From assembly GCA_050123235.1 (NCBI GenBank), contig JASFHL010000006.1, forward strand, positions 1,707 through 65,706: a stretch of 64,000 nt of DNA. The letters run 5' to 3'. The DNA comes from Candidatus Woesebacteria bacterium. GTDB taxonomy: Bacteria > Patescibacteriota > Microgenomatia > UBA1400 > PJMF01. Below are positions 9,288 to 59,290 of this stretch, piece after piece; the stretch's first letter is position 1, and every line of letters begins with the position of its first letter. Under the pieces are notes generated by a model. The model worked only from the letters and a program-made list of their open reading frames with translations, searched no databases and was not told where the DNA came from. A program made the position numbers and the translations under genes.

Positions 9288-9554
9288 TTATAGATAAAAC
9301 TTAATAATCAACAAAATGATAACTGTGATAGCAGTAACTAAGATTGTTTTTCTTAAATCTTGATAGATCAACTTAATATCAAAACCAAAAATTTTATTTA
9401 AACTAGCAGTCATTTGCTGACTGCTTTTGTCCGCTGATCCGTTATTTAAGTTCCTTTCTTTTTGTCTATTATCTAACAAAGTAGCTGCTTTGGCTACTAG
9501 CTTTCTTTTTTTACTAATCTTCTGTTTTTGTCGTCTGGTTCTCTTTTTAGCCAT
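9288..9554 (-). CDS. small tail-anchored hypothetical protein
   Basis: Basic N-terminus and a C-terminal TM helix. Overlaps rseP start. Confidence 0.3.
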   Translation of the reverse strand: MAKKRTRRQKQKISKKRKLVAKAATLLDNRQKERNLNNGSADKSSQQMTASLNKIFGFDIKLIYQDLRKTILVTAITVIILLIIKFYL

Positions 9555-21661: not shown

Positions 21662-23536
21662 TTAAATTTTTATCAATTCTGGCTTTTCCAATTTTAAAAA
21701 ATCCTTCATTGACATCACTACCGAGCGATCATGGCGACCAACATTGAAAGCCATAGTTTTTTCTTTAGCTAAATCAGAATCTAAATAGGTTTTAAGCTGT
21801 ATGCTAGAACCAAAAGGTGGAATGGCACCAATTTCTAAAGCTGTTCTTTCTTTAACCTCTTCTTTTGAGGCCATAGTTAATTTACTTTCATTAAAATATT
21901 TTTTCAAAAGTTTAAAATCAGCCTTTTTATTTCCCGCTAAAACAAATAAAACATATTTTTTATTTTTATCTTTACCTAATCTTAAAACTAAAGCCTTAGC
22001 ACCTTGATGTGCAGCTGTTCCTCTAATTTTGGCTGCTTCTTCACTGGTATAAACAGGTTCATGAGCAAAATATTGATAATCAGCGCCACTGTTTTGTAAT
22101 TTATTGACAATAAAATCATGTGGACTTTGGCTCTCTACAGCAACAGCGATACCTAATTCATCAAGTTGATCAGCTTCCACTACGCTTGGCGCTGACATCA
22201 CGGCTGTGCGTCCAGTTGAGGTCATTGGGAAGGCAATCACTTCTTTTAATGAACTTTCTCCTGCCAATAACATCACTAAACGATCAATACCTAAAGCAAT
22301 GCCACCATGAGGAGGAGTCCCAAGTTCAAAAGCTTTGAGCATATGGCCAATACTATCTTCTATTTCTTGATCACTATAACCCATTATTTTAAAAGTAGAT
22401 TTAAGTAGTTCTGCTGTATGAGCGCGGATACTACCGCCACCTGCTTCATAGCCATTACAGACCAAGTCATACTGAGCAGTGATGATTTTATCAATATTAC
22501 GGCCTGCTAGATGATCCTCTATATGCTCTGGCAACGGGCTACTAAAAGGGTTATGAGTGAAAGTCCAGCCACTCTTGCCATCTTGTACTTCAGCAGCATC
22601 TTCTTTATCTACTTTTTTAAAAAAAGGAAAATTTACTACCCAAGCAAATGCTAAAACACCTTTCTTTTTTTCTTTTTCTGTTCTGAGATCAAATTTATCA
22701 TCCCCATATTTTTTAAGGGCATCTTGATAATTAATGACTGGAAAAGTCTCATCTTTGAGTTTGCCACCAACTGCTTTGATAGCAGTCTTGACCAATTCTT
22801 CTACTACTTGCATCACTTCCTCTTGACTAGCAAAGCTTAGCTCTAAATCAAACTGAGTAAACTCAAAACCTCTGTCAGATCTTAAATCCTCATCACGAAT
22901 ACAACGAGCAACTTGGAAATATCTTTCCAGCCCTGCAGTCATTAATAGCTGTTTATATTGTTGAGGGCTTTGAGGTAAAGCATAAAACTTACCCAGCTGA
23001 AAACGAGAAGGGACAATAAAGTCTCTAGCACCTTCTTTGGTTGATTTAGTTAAGATTGGTGTTTCAACTTCTACAAAATCTTGCTTGAACAAATGCTCCC
23101 TTAAAGCCCTAATAAATTCTGACCTCAGACGCATAATCTTTTGCATTCTATCTCGTCTCAAATCTAGATAGCGGTATTTCAATCTCACTTCTTCACCGAT
23201 TTCCTTACCATCACCGTCAAGAGAAATTGGCAAATCAATTGATTTGTTCAAAATCTTGTAACTTTCAAGTTCCAGCTCAACTTTACCGGTAGCAATCTTT
23301 TCATTAAAGTTAGCCTTATCTCGTTGTTTGACTATGCCAATCACCTCTACCACAGATTCAACTGTTAAATCTCTTAATTGATTATCGACTCCCACGCATT
23401 GAATGAACCCTGTTCTATCCCTTAAATCAATGAAAGTAACTTTACCATGATCACGTTTACTATTCACCCAGCCTTGGAGCTTAATCTTTTTACCAACAGA
23501 TTTGGGGGCATGGTGGATGAGTGTGCGTGTCTGCAT
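21662..23536 (-). CDS. aspS: aspartate--tRNA ligase lacking the GAD insertion domain, fused to a C-terminal YbaK/ProX-like deacylase domain
   Basis: Bacterial-type motifs QSPQQYKQLLM, FEFTQFDLELSF, GGGSIR and GIALGIDRL. Only ~135 aa lie between motifs 2 and 3. About 160 aa follow the usual end with KALVLRL...IGAIPPFG...VGRHDRSVVMS, which is YbaK-like. Confidence 0.85.
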   Translation of the reverse strand: MQTRTLIHHAPKSVGKKIKLQGWVNSKRDHGKVTFIDLRDRTGFIQCVGVDNQLRDLTVESVVEVIGIVKQRDKANFNEKIATGKVELELESYKILNKSIDLPISLDGDGKEIGEEVRLKYRYLDLRRDRMQKIMRLRSEFIRALREHLFKQDFVEVETPILTKSTKEGARDFIVPSRFQLGKFYALPQSPQQYKQLLMTAGLERYFQVARCIRDEDLRSDRGFEFTQFDLELSFASQEEVMQVVEELVKTAIKAVGGKLKDETFPVINYQDALKKYGDDKFDLRTEKEKKKGVLAFAWVVNFPFFKKVDKEDAAEVQDGKSGWTFTHNPFSSPLPEHIEDHLAGRNIDKIITAQYDLVCNGYEAGGGSIRAHTAELLKSTFKIMGYSDQEIEDSIGHMLKAFELGTPPHGGIALGIDRLVMLLAGESSLKEVIAFPMTSTGRTAVMSAPSVVEADQLDELGIAVAVESQSPHDFIVNKLQNSGADYQYFAHEPVYTSEEAAKIRGTAAHQGAKALVLRLGKDKNKKYVLFVLAGNKKADFKLLKKYFNESKLTMASKEEVKERTALEIGAIPPFGSSIQLKTYLDSDLAKEKTMAFNVGRHDRSVVMSMKDFLKLEKPELIKI

Positions 23537-23593: not shown

Positions 23594-25108
23594 TCAGTGA
23601 TTAGCCATCTTAGCTTCAAATGGCATATTAACTGTATATTCTGGTTTAAATCTATCTACTTCCGCGTGTCTTCTATCTTCATCATTTATCGCAATACTTC
23701 CTAGAATCAATTGTCCTTCTACTACTTGAGGAAAATAACGGGCATTATAAACGTCAACATTTTTTATTCTATAAACAACTTCTGGATTTTTTAAATCTAT
23801 TGCCACTAAAACATCATAATTTAAAGTAGCACCTTCCTGATGATTTGCTCTTACTACAATTAAATCTTGTCTGCCGAGTCTAATATAACTAGGAGACGAT
23901 AAAAAATTAACTCCATAAGCTGTCAAATCAGCAACTGGCTGCCAGCTGGCATCTTCTGCAGCTGAAGTAGCAAGATATAGCCTCTCGCCGTCAGCTTTTA
24001 TGATTTGATGATTCGGAGTAATACAAAAATTAGAGTTATGTCTACATGCTAAACCATCACTGCCTTCTTCTCGAAGAATGCTGAATTCACCTGTTCTTGG
24101 ATCAAGTTCAATTTGAGCTTGCCTAATACGGCCATCTTGATCACCTGCTGTAATTCCTTCATCAGTATGCATTTTTGTTCTCAAATTCCCATCTTCAACT
24201 CTAAATTGAGATTTTACTCTACTAGAAGAAATAGATTCATAAGTCAAACAAGTAAGTTGATAAGTATTCTCTGTGCCTGGTACCAGAGTGAGACTAAAAC
24301 GATCGCCATAAGGATCAGTATAACCCGGGAGAGCTTCTTCAACCATAATTACTGGTTCAGAGATAGTACGGGAACCATCCTCATTAGTTTTGATGCTTAT
24401 GGCTTCAATTTGATCGCTGGGTACTCCATTGCTCACAATATGTCTTTTATAAACTATGAAAACAATATCTGTTGTAATTCTGCTAGAAAGAATAGGATTA
24501 TCAATAGCTTCATAGTTATATGCATCTCTGTATACCCATGGAGCAATTACCTCATGATTGGCTACTGATCCATCAGTATTATATGCTACCCAATATAAAC
24601 CGCGACCATCATCTGGCCAAACAAAGCCACTTTCTCCAAGATAGGCAATAGAAGAAAGTCCAGCTGCTGTAGACTGTTCTATCCAATTTAAAACGTAAAT
24701 TGGCACTTGATAACCTAGTTCTCTTTCTAAGATTACTACTCTTCCAAGTTCATCATTATCAAAGACAGCCCTCTCCAAAAACATTTCACCTACAATACCC
24801 CAGTTAGTATCCATAGTCCTACTAACAACTGTCGCTCCTGCAGCAGAACTTGCCTGAACATGATCAACACTAAGCCATAAATTATCAGGCTCTTTAGGTG
24901 GTAAATCAGCATGACCTGTTTGAACAAATAATTCTTTATATGGTTCTGGTGAGGAAGTACTTTCTAGTGAAGAGGTCTCTTGAGCAGTAGCTTCTTCGCC
25001 TGGGAATAGTCTCCTCCCTGTAACTAGTGCTCCAACCATGGAAGCTGTTCCTTTAAGCCATTCTCTTCTGTTCAAAGGTTTTCTTAAAAAAGACTTTTCT
25101 TCAGACAT
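23594..25108 (-). CDS. hypothetical secreted protein with twin-arginine (Tat) signal
   Basis: N-terminal NRREWLKGTASMVGALVTG. Confidence 0.5.
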   Translation of the reverse strand: MSEEKSFLRKPLNRREWLKGTASMVGALVTGRRLFPGEEATAQETSSLESTSSPEPYKELFVQTGHADLPPKEPDNLWLSVDHVQASSAAGATVVSRTMDTNWGIVGEMFLERAVFDNDELGRVVILERELGYQVPIYVLNWIEQSTAAGLSSIAYLGESGFVWPDDGRGLYWVAYNTDGSVANHEVIAPWVYRDAYNYEAIDNPILSSRITTDIVFIVYKRHIVSNGVPSDQIEAISIKTNEDGSRTISEPVIMVEEALPGYTDPYGDRFSLTLVPGTENTYQLTCLTYESISSSRVKSQFRVEDGNLRTKMHTDEGITAGDQDGRIRQAQIELDPRTGEFSILREEGSDGLACRHNSNFCITPNHQIIKADGERLYLATSAAEDASWQPVADLTAYGVNFLSSPSYIRLGRQDLIVVRANHQEGATLNYDVLVAIDLKNPEVVYRIKNVDVYNARYFPQVVEGQLILGSIAINDEDRRHAEVDRFKPEYTVNMPFEAKMANH

Positions 25109-25380
25109 AGATTACTATTATAACTTATAACTTTCTAATTAATTAAAAACAATTACTAAATCTGGAGATACTAGATTAAAATTATAGCAGCAACTGTAGC
25201 CACTCATCCAAAATTCATTTAAGAATCTGCACTTGCTTTTTTGATATGGATATGTGATCATATTTTTTTAATGATAAAAATTAGTTGTTGGCACGTCACC
25301 CGTTATCAAATGGTCATCTTCTCTAAGAGAAGAGTGGGGGCGTGATTTATCATTAAATTTAAAAAATAACTAAAAAACGA

Positions 25381-25405
25381 CCCCGCAAAAAAAGCGGGGC
25401 TTTTT
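25381..25405. terminator. intrinsic terminator hairpin (CCCCGC-A7-GCGGGG + T5) flanked by A- and T-tracts, potentially bidirectional
   Basis: Perfect 6-bp GC stem with a 7-nt loop followed by TTTTT. An A-tract precedes it. Confidence 0.6.
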
Positions 25406-25504
25406 GATTTTAAGAAGTAATTATTAATTAGTAAGCGGAATTTTATAGCAAACTGTTTAAAAAAATTACTTAAAGCAGCTATAAAAATTCTGAAAGGAGG
25501 CGAA

Positions 25505-25717
25505 ATGTCACCCGTCAGGCCAACCCTCAGCAGCTCCAATCTAAAGACCTTATATTATCTGGCCTTAAACTGTTGCAAAGGGCAGAATCAAAGGCCCAGT
25601 TTATTTGAATATAAACAAGATCAAAGTAGCTTTGAAAGGGTGATGATTGCCATCAATAAAGCTAAGCGTAAGAATAGTTATTTTAAAAACTACGCCAATG
25701 CGATGATGAAAGAATAA
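25505..25717 (+). CDS. small ORF (70 aa) with strong Shine-Dalgarno; product unknown
   Basis: AAAGGAGG lies 5 nt before the ATG. No homology recognised; may instead lie within an ncRNA. Confidence 0.25.
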   Translation: MSPVRPTLSSSNLKTLYYLALNCCKGQNQRPSLFEYKQDQSSFERVMIAINKAKRKNSYFKNYANAMMKE

Positions 25718-25899
25718 AAAGTGATGGGTTCACTCAGCTCATTCAAGATGCAATGAGCTGAGTAAAGTTATCATTGCGTTGTGCTAATGGGCGCTTCCTT
25801 TCGATTGGTAAAGCAGACAACCCTCCGGGGGCATTTTTCCCAGCTCTTAAAAAACACAACCCTTTAGTAAAAAATCATAGTCTCTGCTAAAATTTAATT

Positions 25900-27147
25900 A
25901 TGTCAAGACAATCCTTCATTCGCTACTTAGTAGTAATCCTCATCACCACTGCCATCATTGCTCCCTTAAGCATTCTTTTATCTAAAAAAATTGATTTCAA
26001 TCAAGCTGATCCCTTCACCAACCCTTTTGTAGACCAAGCAAAACAAAAAGAGCTACCACTGCTACAATATTCCATCCCTAATCTAAAAAAAAGAGCCTAT
26101 TACCCCAGTCAAATTAAAATTGAAAGCTTAATTGACGAATTTGAAGAATACAATGCCTATCTTTTTTCCTATACGACCATGAATAAAAAAATGACTGGCC
26201 AGCTCAATATCCCACACACTGCTTATACTAAAAATAAATCAGCAGTGATTATCATGCTACGCGGTTATGTACCCAAAGAAATTTACCAATCTGGAGTTGG
26301 TACTAAAAATGCAGCTGCTGTTTTGGCTAAAAATGGCTACATTACTTTGGCGCCTGATTTTTTTGGTTTTGGAGACAGTGCTGAAGAACCAGAAGATAGC
26401 TGGGAGGGGAGATTTATCAAACCCATTAATGTGATCGAATTAGTTGAAACAGTTAAACAAAATCCTAAAATCAAAATCCCTGAAGACTTAGCTGCGACTG
26501 ATACTGCTAAAGAAAGTGTAAAAACTGATAGTGAGACAGAAGCTGAGCAAGAAGAAGACGAATCAGAAAAAACAGGACCTAGCATTAAACTTGATCCTCA
26601 GAAAATTGGTATTTGGGCTCATAGTAATGGCGGACAAATCGCGCTCACTACTCTGGAAGTTCTATCAGAAGAGATCCCGACTACTCTCTGGGCACCGGTG
26701 ACAGCACCTTTTCCTTATTCAATCTTGTTCTTCAGCGATGAAGTAGAAGACGAGGGCAAAGAAAGCCGAGCTTGGGTAGCTTTATTTGAAAAAGATTATG
26801 ATGTTTTTGATTTCAGCCTCACTCAGCACCTTGATAAGCTCACTGGACCATTACAAATCCATCATGGCACTAGTGATGATGCAGCTTTAATTGCTTGGTC
26901 GGATGAATTTGTAAGCAAAATTAAAAAAGAAAACCAAAGACGAAAAGAATTATCAGCAGAATCAAAAATGCAAAATTCCGATTCTAAGCAAAAAGAAAAA
27001 ACAGATGAAGATCAAGAAGAGATAGAACTTCCTCTAAATCAAATCCAGGTTACTTACCATCGTTATCCTGGGGCTAATCATAATCTACAACCAGCTTGGG
27101 ATACGGCCGTAAAAAGAGATTTGGACTTTTTTGCAGAAAATTTATAA
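25900..27147 (+). CDS. membrane-anchored alpha/beta-hydrolase (S9 / dienelactone-hydrolase-like)
   Basis: N-terminal TM. GxSxG nucleophile elbow GIWAHSNGGQIA, with downstream D and H candidates. Confidence 0.6.
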   Translation: MSRQSFIRYLVVILITTAIIAPLSILLSKKIDFNQADPFTNPFVDQAKQKELPLLQYSIPNLKKRAYYPSQIKIESLIDEFEEYNAYLFSYTTMNKKMTGQLNIPHTAYTKNKSAVIIMLRGYVPKEIYQSGVGTKNAAAVLAKNGYITLAPDFFGFGDSAEEPEDSWEGRFIKPINVIELVETVKQNPKIKIPEDLAATDTAKESVKTDSETEAEQEEDESEKTGPSIKLDPQKIGIWAHSNGGQIALTTLEVLSEEIPTTLWAPVTAPFPYSILFFSDEVEDEGKESRAWVALFEKDYDVFDFSLTQHLDKLTGPLQIHHGTSDDAALIAWSDEFVSKIKKENQRRKELSAESKMQNSDSKQKEKTDEDQEEIELPLNQIQVTYHRYPGANHNLQPAWDTAVKRDLDFFAENL

Positions 27148-29477: not shown

Positions 29478-29505
29478 CTGACTATTCCTTCAAAATTGCT
29501 ATAAT
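29478..29505 (+). promoter_or_regulatory. sigma70-like promoter for metG (CTGACT-N16-TATAAT), -10 only 6 nt from ATG, implying a leaderless mRNA
   Basis: Read directly from the sequence upstream of the 29512 ATG. Confidence 0.35.
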
Positions 29506-29511
29506 ACTCCC

Positions 29512-30987
29512 ATGTCTGATCAATATTTCTATCTCACCACCACCTTACCGTATGTCAATGCTTCACCACATATTGGTTTTGGTTTAGAAATTACTGAAGC
29601 TGATGTGATTGCCAGATATATGATGATGAAACTTGGTGAAAGAAATGTGTTTTTCAATACTGGGACTGATGAACATGGGCAAAAAATCTATCAAAAAGCA
29701 ATGGAGGCAAAATTAGATCCTCAAAAATATTGTGATCAATATGCAGCTAAATTCGCTGATCTAAAAAAACAGCTCAATCTTAAATACAATCATTTTATTA
29801 GAACCACTGAGCAGCATCACGTTAAAGCTGCTCAAGAGTTTTGGCGTCGTTGTCAAAAAAATGCTGATATTTACAAAAAACTTTATAAAATAAAATACTG
29901 TGTTGGCTGTGAGTTAGAAAAAACTGACAGTGAGCTGCTTGATGGTAAATGCCAGTTACACCCTAATCGTGACTTAGAAATTAGAGAAGAGGAAAATTAT
30001 TTTTTTAGATTTTCAAAATATCAACAAGCTTTATTAGATCTTTATCAACAACAACCTCATTTTGTCAAACCAGTAAGCAAGATGAAAGAAATTATTAGTT
30101 TTGTAAAACAAGGTCTGCAAGACTTCAGTATTTCTAGATTAAAATCAAAAATGCCTTGGGGCATCCCAGTACCAGGAGATAAAGAACATGTGATGTATGT
30201 TTGGTTCGATGCCTTGATTAACTATATTTCTACTATTGGCTGGCCAGATGATACTGATAGTTTTAGAAAATATTGGCCAGGTTTGCCAGAATCAGAAACA
30301 CTAGCACCAGAAAAAATTTCTTGCATTCAACTAGCTGGTAAAGATAATCTTCGCCAGCAATCGGCCATGTGGCAAGCAATGTTACTCTCAGCTGGCTTGC
30401 CAACTACCCAGCAAATTTTAATTAATGGCTTTATTAGCATTGATGGTCAAAAAATGAGTAAATCTTTGGGTAATGTCATCTCCCCAAAACAAATGGTGGA
30501 GCGTTATGGGACTGATGCCACTAGATATCTTTTAATTTCATTAGGTGCTTTTAGCAGTGATATGGATGTTAATTGGGATAAGTTTGATAACAAATACACT
30601 GCTGATTTGACAAATGGCTTAGGTAACTTATGTTCCAGAGTGGCTAAGATGTGTGAGAAGGCGGGAATCGGATCAGTGGAGGCAAAAATCAAACTTAACG
30701 CTAATTATGAACAGGCTATGACTAATTTTGAACTTAATGATGCTCTAAGTGAAACTATGCTTTTAATTAGTAAAGAAGATCAATTTCTCAGTGAAGCTAA
30801 GCCATGGCAATTAGCGGGTGAAGATCAGGCCTTAATATTAGCTAATTCTGCTACTAATATCCTCACTATCGCTCATCATCTCCAGCCTTTTATGCCAGAA
30901 ACAGCTCAAAAAATCTTAGATCACTTTAACAAGAAAAAAATAGTTGCACTTAAAGCACTTTTTCCTAGATTAAAGCAATCTAAATAA
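29512..30987 (+). CDS. metG: methionine--tRNA ligase
   Basis: HIGF (HIGH-class) and KMSKSLGN motifs. Zn-knuckle cysteines present. Confidence 0.9.
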   Translation: MSDQYFYLTTTLPYVNASPHIGFGLEITEADVIARYMMMKLGERNVFFNTGTDEHGQKIYQKAMEAKLDPQKYCDQYAAKFADLKKQLNLKYNHFIRTTEQHHVKAAQEFWRRCQKNADIYKKLYKIKYCVGCELEKTDSELLDGKCQLHPNRDLEIREEENYFFRFSKYQQALLDLYQQQPHFVKPVSKMKEIISFVKQGLQDFSISRLKSKMPWGIPVPGDKEHVMYVWFDALINYISTIGWPDDTDSFRKYWPGLPESETLAPEKISCIQLAGKDNLRQQSAMWQAMLLSAGLPTTQQILINGFISIDGQKMSKSLGNVISPKQMVERYGTDATRYLLISLGAFSSDMDVNWDKFDNKYTADLTNGLGNLCSRVAKMCEKAGIGSVEAKIKLNANYEQAMTNFELNDALSETMLLISKEDQFLSEAKPWQLAGEDQALILANSATNILTIAHHLQPFMPETAQKILDHFNKKKIVALKALFPRLKQSK

Positions 30988-59147: not shown

Positions 59148-59290
59148 AAAAATTGGGATTTACTCATTTAATCACAACTTAGAGTAATAAGACAACTCTA
59201 CTGATGAATTCTTCTACGAGAGTTATTCCTCGGAAGAATGGACTAGTCGATTCATCGACTTGATAGAAAAAATGTTCAAGTAGCTAAAAT

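Follow-up and report, generated by a model that had tools for sequence, protein, structure and literature searches.

In the classical ribosome-mediated transcription attenuators (the trp, his, leu, thr and pheST leaders), a leader open reading frame (ORF) lies over the first of a series of RNA segments whose pairings 1:2, 2:3 and 3:4 exclude one another, and termination is the default. Here we describe an element with this arrangement in a 64,000-nucleotide stretch of DNA from a Candidatus Woesebacteria bacterium (hereafter the window), where it lies within positions 25109-25899, upstream of an ORF of 70 amino acids. We observed three mutually exclusive pairings together with covariation, conservation of a short ORF and a conserved gene order, and we are highly confident that the element is a cis-acting terminator/antiterminator switch controlling a small-protein gene. 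The reading that we favour for how it works, with clearly less confidence and as judged from sequence, is ribosome-dependent attenuation of transcription through a leader peptide, in the manner of the trp leader, ahead of the 70-aa ORF. The host belongs to the Patescibacteria (Candidate Phyla Radiation, CPR), uncultured bacteria with small genomes and few recognisable regulators; to our knowledge very little is known of gene regulation in this group, and in searching the literature we came across no account of leader-peptide attenuation in CPR or Patescibacteria. The window thereby offers a well-supported cis-regulatory RNA switch in Patescibacteria that stands outside the Rfam 15 families at threshold, with concrete sequences now at hand for in vitro work without culturing the organism.

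Other described leaders resemble this element in part. In mycobacteria, leaderless polycysteine short ORFs occur at the 5' end of operons, where ribosome pausing is reported to remodel the downstream RNA and to free a sequestered ribosome-binding site, that is, translational control (Canestrari et al., bioRxiv 10.1101/834739). The short ORF of the window would likewise be leaderless, but its output is an intrinsic terminator and its peptide has a single Cys; membership in the mycobacterial poly-Cys attenuators was rejected on this single Cys and on an unrelated downstream gene. The toiL leader of Escherichia coli (PMC12121999) and the vmlR leader of Bacillus subtilis (PMC9226507) carry leader ORFs that sense translation stress or antibiotics; the toiL-regulated genes encode small stress-type proteins and toiL acts through Rho (PMC12121999). 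The window element is like both in that its leader peptide has no amino-acid bias and in the read-through dependent on a stalled ribosome that we propose for it, and unlike both in that there is no sequence similarity and nothing ties the window element to antibiotics.

The element comprises the following parts, all read on the + strand, together with the gene that it is presumed to regulate:

25233..25261, + strand: leader promoter, sigma-70-like and read from sequence, with a -35 box TTGCTT (25233-25238), a 17-nt spacer and an extended -10 box TGT-GATCAT (25253-25261).
25271..25345, + strand: mini-ORF of 24 codons without a Shine-Dalgarno sequence, encoding the putative leader peptide MIKISCWHVTRYQMVIFSKRRVGA and ending in UGA.
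25267..25357, + strand: long hairpin (anti-antiterminator) with the nested helices P1, P2 and P3, from minimum-free-energy folds.
25267-25278 / 25346-25357, + strand: P1, a perfect 12-bp inverted repeat that closes the hairpin and includes the AUG.
25292-25301 / 25336-25344, + strand: P2, segment 1 with segment 2, CACGUC-A-CCC / GGG-GGCGUG, with A25298 bulged.
25317-25323 / 25327-25333, + strand: P3, a 7-bp palindrome at the hairpin tip.
25334-25343 / 25377-25386, + strand: antiterminator 2:3, GUGGGG-G-CGU with ACG-A-CCCCGC, 9 bp, from RNAduplex.
25346..25380, + strand: linker, A-rich and G-poor, whose final 4 nt join the antiterminator.
25381..25405, + strand: intrinsic terminator 3:4, with segment 3 CCCCGC (25381-25386), an A7 loop, segment 4 GCGGGG (25394-25399), C and U5.
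25493-25500, + strand: Shine-Dalgarno sequence AAAGGAGG upstream of the 70-aa ORF.
25505-25717, + strand: 70-aa ORF encoding a small helical protein, the presumed regulated gene.

From this layout the leader is predicted to have a 5' untranslated region of about 0-4 nt, the ATG lying 9 nt past the -10 box. Segment 1 is formed by codons 8-11 of the mini-ORF, the UGA of which shares bases with the 3' end of segment 2; the 2:3 duplex has an energy of -14.2 to -15.9 kcal/mol, varying with the flanks included (RNAduplex). Unlike the classical attenuators, the element has no Shine-Dalgarno sequence, its start is probably leaderless and it lacks a run of regulatory codons; the stop codon falls at the end of segment 2, whereas the classical one lies between segments 1 and 2; there is a third, inner hairpin and an outer helix including the AUG; and the target would be an uncharacterised small protein in a Patescibacterium, not a biosynthetic operon.

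A previous inspection of the window by eye, made from the letters alone (the original prediction), had singled out positions 25109-25899 as the largest non-coding gap, and at 791 nt this is indeed the largest stretch without ORFs of at least 100 aa, the runner-up having 404 nt. The terminator CCCCGC-A7-GCGGGG that it reported was borne out, with the stem at 25381-25399 followed by C and T5 to 25405; our terminator scan detected it on both strands, and 24500-26500 gave 5 terminator-like sites where shuffled sequence gave 1.5 +/- 1.4. The palindrome TCTTCTC-TAA-GAGAAGA at 25317-25333 (our P3) was confirmed and makes up the tip in the minimum-free-energy fold, a perfect 12-bp stem at 25742-25773 turned out to be the core of a longer inverted repeat (25722-25773), and the Shine-Dalgarno sequence noted ahead of the 70-aa ORF is where it was said to be. 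The P1 inverted repeat, the 24-codon ORF inside the hairpin and the promoters had been overlooked. A duplicated 9-mer, GTCACCCGT, does occur at 25295 and 25507 and has no further copy in the window; 0.02 matches are expected for that specific word, and some exact 9-mer repeat within 800 nt is not unusual. Its copies correspond to segment 1 and to the opening codons of the 70-aa ORF (M-S-P-V). The downstream copy as a second segment 1 able to pair with segment 2 was rejected: this pairing is not conserved, with a mean cognate energy of -8.7 against a mean non-cognate one of -8.8 kcal/mol.

For comparison, 63 loci were fetched through the hydrolase encoded downstream of the element (in genome and metagenome collections), through exact-protein look-ups of homologues of this hydrolase and of the neighbouring aspartyl-tRNA synthetase (AspRS), and through the single homologue of the 70-aa protein. 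They were analysed by inspection and with a descriptor scan, in which an ORF of 14-36 codons with an ATG start had to be followed by an intrinsic terminator 15-70 nt past its end. The collections hold no close relative of the source genome, the best hydrolase homologue being 56% identical. The original prediction had proposed looking for the region in related genomes, and the same unit was found in 10 of them, all uncultured Microgenomates-group Patescibacteria (L003, L004, L005, L007, which is identical to L030, L008, L033, L006, L034, L063 and L064); with the window these make the 11 instances referred to below. The order promoter, ATG, 21-27-codon ORF, long hairpin, A-rich linker and terminator is conserved across these 11 distinct genomes, and partial copies holding only linker and terminator lie at the ends of contigs L013 and L061, which are cut just upstream. 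Promoters in the relatives are equivalent and stronger (TTGACA, TTGCAT or TTGCCT, 16-19 nt, then TTTAAT, TATAAT or TACAAT, placed 7-11 nt before the ATG in 10/10), linkers measure 22-38 nt with the same A-rich, G-poor composition, and a terminator stands at the equivalent position in all 11 instances as well as in L013 and L061. The unit lies between AspRS and hydrolase in 9 of the 10 distinct genomes with that gene adjacency and is absent from the remaining one, seen as three near-identical loci (L011, L012 and L037); it is inverted in L006 and L034 and divergent from AspRS in L063 and L064. A 504-aa gene that separates AspRS from the attenuator in the window is absent from every relative carrying the element, which points to a local, lineage-specific insertion. 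Within the window, one further mini-ORF and terminator candidate, at 9316, was discarded as it lies inside a minus-strand gene, and another candidate site is found at 59204.

The evidence for a switch comes from the way in which the pairings are kept while the sequences change. A single long hairpin spans the mini-ORF in 11/11 instances (z-scores of -1.5 to -6.3 in the 9 tested), and its stems differ in sequence between clades yet stay complementary. Because whole-element MAFFT alignments (A1, A2 and A5) proved unreliable between clades, we relied there on comparing cognate with non-cognate duplex energies and restricted column counts to A3, an alignment of four sequences (L004, L007, L008 and L033). 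Duplexes between the 5' and 3' halves of the hairpin averaged -23.5 kcal/mol when cognate and -15.4 kcal/mol when non-cognate, with 0/20000 permutations as good. On A3, 88.6% of the P2 cells of the 1:2 pairing are paired, with 2 compensatory pairs, and the paired cells drop to 25-58% on sliding the partner strand by 1-3 columns.

Segment 2, which is G-rich and forms the 3' strand of the main stem, resembles the 3' arm of its own terminator in every genome, so that it can pair with the terminator 5' arm, segment 3. Across the 11 instances the cognate segment 2:segment 3 duplexes have 7-13 bp and energies of -15.1 to -19.9 kcal/mol; the cognate mean is -16.9 kcal/mol against -12.4 kcal/mol for non-cognate combinations, and 0/50000 permutations were as good. 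L064 is instructive, as its terminator (ACUUCUCAGC-A6-CUGAGGAGU) is unrelated to the usual (A)CCCCGC type: its segment 2, GCUGAGGUAGUGAU (GCUGAGG-U-AGUGAU), forms 13 bp with its own terminator arm at -17.8 kcal/mol and reaches merely -5.3 to -11.6 kcal/mol with the terminators of other genomes. RNAalifold on A3 gave the antiterminator as consensus structure, with 11 pairs, 2 of them compensatory and 0 broken. In this alignment, L004 and L007 have U in column 83 together with A in columns 25 and 120, where L008 and L033 have G together with C in both, columns 25 and 120 belonging to segments 1 and 3, respectively. In column 76, three sequences have G, matched by C in columns 31 and 126, and L008 has A, matched by U in both. 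The same two segment-2 columns thus covary with both partners, which is the signature of a strand that alternates between them, and such alternation yields the arrangement anti-antiterminator 1:2, antiterminator 2:3 and terminator 3:4.

The mini-ORF is the second conserved component. An ATG-started ORF of 21-27 codons is open at the same structural position in 11/11 instances, always without a Shine-Dalgarno sequence and with its ATG 7-11 nt past a -10 box, and its stop codon falls at, or a few bases past, the 3' end of segment 2 in every instance. The other two frames contain about 1.5 stops each, and only 3/18 off-frames examined are open; an open frame in all of the approximately 8 independent lineages would be very unlikely by chance, by a rough estimate and not a formal test. 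The ratio of nonsynonymous to synonymous substitution rates (dN/dS) is 0.34, 0.29 and 0.18 in three close pairs. Within clades peptide motifs such as WQHQxTIxKF are conserved, while between clades only a pattern is kept, in which polar residues that include His, Tyr or Trp are followed by a hydrophobic and a basic part and finally by Val, Ala or Gly. The window's codons 8-11 (CAC GUC ACC CGU, 25292-25303) are all minor ones, each with 0.11-0.22 of synonymous use in a genome of 34% G+C, and could be either a built-in slow stretch or just the G+C that pairing requires. In most instances segment 1 opens with a single His or Tyr codon; sensing specific for His, or for Asn/His/Tyr through queuosine tRNAs, was rejected, as these codons are explained by the C/A-rich segment 1 and His is replaced by Tyr in two instances. 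A leaderless start of the mini-ORF is plausible from the sequence context.

By analogy with the classical attenuation model, we infer that the mini-ORF is translated in a leaderless or near-leaderless manner and that the position of the ribosome chooses between the pairings. Transcription would begin a few bases ahead of the AUG at 25271. By default, with no ribosome present, the long hairpin would form first, being far more stable than 2:3, and segment 1 would hold segment 2 (25334-25344); with the hairpin intact the terminator at 25381-25405 would form and a transcript of about 138 nt would be released. A ribosome loaded on the 5' AUG and delayed over codons ~6-15 would instead cover segment 1 and leave segment 2 free while segment 3 is made, so that segment 2 could pair with 25377-25386, build the antiterminator and let RNA polymerase read through into the 70-aa ORF. 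As the stop codon overlaps segment 2, a ribosome that reaches it would cover this segment and termination would win again, and because P1 pairs the AUG region with sequence just past the stop, loading should be restricted to the first ribosome. The triggers we favour are a general slowing of translation, with segment 1 as a rare-codon block, or nascent-chain arrest, given that the peptide seems to be under some selection. Leaderless mini-ORFs would then be the sensors, in line with the Cys-rich leaders before cysteinyl-tRNA synthetase (CysRS) genes described below.

An unlikely extension of the attenuator is that the mini-ORF encodes a true arrest peptide, the nascent chain of which brings the ribosome to a halt upon sensing a specific small molecule, an antibiotic or a translation state; selection on the peptide sequence would then be due to this arrest. 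If so, it would switch on a fast-evolving small-protein module specific to Microgenomates-group Patescibacteria, the 138-nt RNA, once released, and the peptide might have further roles in trans, and, together with the Cys-rich leaders before CysRS, leaderless leader-peptide attenuation would become a general strategy in reduced, regulator-poor genomes.

The gene behind the terminator bears directly on whether the element acts in cis. The distance from the terminator stem to the next ORF is 19 nt in L008, about 22 nt in L063, 34 nt in L064 and 36 nt in L005; it is 50-63 nt in L004, L033 and L007 and 105-144 nt in the window, L003, L061, L006 and L034. No promoter fits in 19-36 nt, so in the first four of these relatives the ORF must be transcribed by read-through. 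Homologues of the 70-aa protein follow the same leader in L003 (66 aa, 37% identity) and L004 (59 aa), and another lies behind the terminator in L061. The latter, P0123 (62 aa, 40% identity, E 4.6e-6), was the one true homologue in an exhaustive search of 1.8 billion proteins, which also returned a spurious match to a eukaryotic immunoglobulin-repeat protein (P0122); a word-index protein search with the 70-aa protein gave only the self-match. The proteins of L007, L008 and L033 are probably related to the 70-aa family as well, to judge by a common P-F-W-H/Y-E-R-Q motif. As read from its sequence and relatives, the 70-aa ORF is a real, conserved gene. Searches of Pfam and NCBIfam gave nothing significant for the 70-aa protein or the other downstream small ORFs, and a single-sequence AlphaFold2 model of the 70-aa protein has three helices at low confidence (predicted local distance difference test, pLDDT, of 67.5). 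The small ORFs downstream of the attenuator carry strong Shine-Dalgarno sites, unlike the leaderless genes of the neighbourhood. Our analysis thus flags a family of small proteins that is conserved but unannotated; its tight control points to a role under particular conditions, perhaps those of stress.

In L005, L006, L034, L063 and L064 other small proteins are encoded downstream, several of them zinc-ribbon-like or very basic. The genes that follow the attenuator vary from genome to genome and are all very small (examples are L006:2880-3650 on the - strand, L034:330-600 on the - strand, L064:2296-2517 on the - strand and L007:3533-3745), and they include zinc-ribbon peptides (MKCQNCGRKVPDDCNICPYCKH..., with CPAC repeats) and a highly basic peptide of 26 aa (MARKKKPSGEKKSHQKKKVRRYMNGA).

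Several observations weigh against a ribosome-dependent attenuator of the 70-aa ORF. The window has 105 nt between terminator stem and ORF, where a weak internal promoter (TTTAAA, 18 nt, TATAAA, at ~25457-25486) is possible, and the small ORFs downstream in L006 and L034 belong to other families. The dN/dS values are supportive and not decisive, because they derive from 21-27 codons in alignments optimised at the amino-acid level, and the conservation of the peptide could partly be RNA constraint, as the composition of the hairpin arms (C/A-rich codons first) yields the same pattern. The peptide lacks a run of any single amino acid; the spacing of 7-11 nt from -10 box to ATG compares with 6-8 nt in the clearly leaderless genes of the same genomes; and translation may be inefficient, since P1 sequesters the AUG once the hairpin is complete.

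A rather unlikely alternative is that the switch is real and its trigger is not a ribosome: a metabolite, a protein (for instance the downstream small basic protein, in feedback) or an RNA would bind the hairpin, and the ORF would be a by-product of composition. The covariation in itself proves the three-segment switch only, the peptide pattern mirrors hairpin-arm composition, a YCAAR(U/A)UU stretch conserved in large one-sided internal loops of the hairpin could be a binding site, and very basic small proteins are encoded downstream in L006 and L034. Set against this, the frame is open in 11/11 instances with an ATG right past the promoter, for which chance is about 15% per independent lineage, dN/dS of the mini-ORF is below 1, the loop sequences vary widely among clades, and Rfam holds no matching riboswitch or protein-binding leader.

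The original prediction had proposed a small RNA ending at 25405. An unannotated transcription unit of about 138 nt does stand, and it is best read as the attenuator leader of the 70-aa ORF and not as a free-standing RNA, given the conserved mini-ORF, the covarying antiterminator and the lack of promoter room before the next ORF in relatives. A free-standing gene for a structured RNA acting in trans, with read-through being incidental, is improbable in our view. It would account for the element having its own promoter and a strong terminator, and for the A/C-rich, single-stranded stretch that separates two hairpins, a layout known from many base-pairing small RNAs; a plain small RNA, however, needs no match between segment 2 and the terminator-arm sequence, which segment 2 tracks, and in at least 4 relatives (L008, L005, L063 and L064) the next ORF begins too close to the terminator for a promoter, so that the RNA is not an independent unit there. 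A role of the leader RNA in trans could exist in addition to its role in cis. In Sinorhizobium meliloti, a terminated attenuator transcript, rnTrpL, is reported to be also a small RNA working in trans, and a leader peptide, peTrpL, to have its own function (PMC7968998); a likeness to this system, as an analogy only, would reconcile the small-RNA and attenuator readings.

That the mini-ORF is instead the gene for a functional micro-protein of 21-27 aa with its own leaky terminator, the hairpin merely stabilising the mRNA, appears quite improbable. The dN/dS of 0.18-0.34 and the motifs kept within clades would fit such a gene, yet only a composition pattern is kept between clades, there is no membrane-crossing hydrophobic span or recognisable motif, and a segment 2 that mimics the terminator 3' arm and covaries with the 5' arm would be left unexplained. 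A type I toxin mRNA was likewise rejected, with a hydrophobic stretch of just 4-9 residues between polar or basic flanks (an antisense promoter was not searched for in detail). Finally, a 5' leader of the 504-aa gene formed by the minus-strand hairpin, with the terminator serving minus-strand transcription, is hardly credible: the terminator is formally bidirectional and folding of the minus strand (-37.2 kcal/mol, z -3.8) is about as favourable as that of the plus strand, but the 504-aa gene is missing from all relatives with the element and is served by a separate -10 box, 8 nt ahead of its ATG, the promoter, mini-ORF and downstream gene are all on the + strand, and the G-U pairs of P2 become A-C on the minus strand.

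We also asked whether the leader attenuator belongs to a described RNA family. At gathering score Rfam 15 identifies two tRNAs only in the whole window, and no family in 25000-26000 or in the 17 relatives' loci searched; riboswitches, T-box, tmRNA, SRP RNA, 6S RNA, RNase P RNA and known small RNAs gave no match in 25000-26000 or these loci, and ARAGORN found no tRNA or tmRNA in the region, in agreement with the original prediction, which could not place tmRNA, RNase P or SRP RNA. In a permissive search of 25000-26000 (E up to 10), the sole match with E <0.01 was Trp_leader (RF00513; 32.6 bits, E 1.5e-4), below the gathering threshold of 41 and with an alignment that rests on one stem and the terminator; all others were at chance level. 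This sub-threshold match fits a shared architecture. Membership in Trp_leader itself was rejected, because the score is under threshold, tandem Trp codons are absent from the window leader (one Trp codon in the window, none in 5 relatives) and no trp biosynthesis operon lies downstream. The element stands outside every curated family. Of the features that characterise attenuators as a class, the element has a leader terminator upstream of the gene on the same strand, a covarying 2:3 pairing, a 1:2 pairing that excludes 2:3, and a short ORF over segment 1. A cluster of regulatory codons in or before segment 1, which defines the amino-acid subclass and not the whole mechanism, was not found, as no amino acid is repeated.

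The gap that contains the attenuator is flanked by divergent genes, the 504-aa gene on the - strand from 25108 and a 415-aa alpha/beta-hydrolase gene on the + strand from 25900. Besides the parts listed above, it holds the following features:

25722..25773, + strand: 3' hairpin with 22-nt arms that are 82% complementary, a perfect 12-bp core (25742-25773) and no clean U-tract.
25864..25893, + strand: hydrolase promoter, outside the attenuator and read from sequence, TTAGTA, 18 nt, TAAAAT (-10 box at 25888-25893).
25122-25117 (context 25109..25122), - strand: -10 box TATAAT of the 504-aa gene, 8 nt before its ATG at 25108, as inferred from sequence.

The 3' hairpin begins 5 nt past the stop of the 70-aa ORF, and at the matching place, ahead of the hydrolase promoter, L003 and L004 likewise carry a 12-bp hairpin or a terminator; from its position, it is probably the end or a stabiliser of the 70-aa ORF transcript. 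A role of the downstream hairpins as leader or riboswitch of the hydrolase gene was not supported, as this gene has its own leaderless promoter here and in relatives: its ATG at 25900 is 6 nt past the TAAAAT box without a Shine-Dalgarno sequence, L005 has TATAAT, 6 nt and ATG, and comparable layouts occur in L003, L007 and L008. The methionyl-tRNA synthetase (MetRS) gene of the window, starting at 29512, shows the same arrangement (29496-29514; TATAAT, 6 nt, ATG, no Shine-Dalgarno sequence). Since these two genes and the 504-aa gene have their start codons 6-8 nt past a -10 box and lack a Shine-Dalgarno sequence, leaderless mRNAs seem to be common in this genome. The 504-aa protein (23594-25108, - strand) has a twin-arginine-type signal and no Pfam domain. 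A repeat search found no copy of the region elsewhere in the window, and with the region single-copy a repeat or mobile element was rejected. The "empty" 790 bases thus resolve into three annotated units.

The relatives also yielded a second kind of leader. Upstream of CysRS, a Cys-rich mini-ORF followed by a terminator was found in L020 (2465-2561), L026 (2457-2561), L016 (2227-2333), L021 (2114-2220) and L024 (313-419), with CysRS directly next in L020 and L026. These mini-ORFs (for example MIKICCCPCDGCEGDCC and MINLLCCCPCTCGEECSC) begin 6-7 nt past a -10 box, and their G-rich end can pair with the terminator 5' arm at -11.8 to -16.9 kcal/mol. No Rfam family was matched at threshold by these elements, which are probably cysteine-sensing attenuators of cysS in Patescibacteria. 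They closely resemble the mycobacterial poly-Cys ORFs (10.1101/834739), and a leaderless Cys-rich leader before CysRS supports the existence of a leader-peptide mechanism of this kind in the phylum.

A different leader precedes AspRS in some relatives: at L064:2784-2933, just before the AspRS gene, and similarly in L063 and L065, there is a T-box-like leader, short and divergent, that contains AGAGGUGGCACCG and a terminator; its match to RF00230 (36.4 bits, E 1.4e-6) falls far short of the gathering score of 93. The window AspRS (21662-23536, - strand, start at 23536) has no such leader, with just 57 nt between its start and the end of the 504-aa gene. Its C-terminus is a YbaK/tRNA_edit domain (PF04073), as in 117 of its 120 best homologues, the other 3 being truncated entries of 465-471 aa; several of the homologues carry the NCBI name "amino acid--tRNA ligase-related protein". 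Lastly, in the Logan assembly of run SRR11698124, an independent one from the same organism, the region is divided into two contigs split at ~25803-25827 with an overlap of ~25 nt, a break between the 70-aa ORF and the hydrolase promoter that may reflect strain variation or low coverage.

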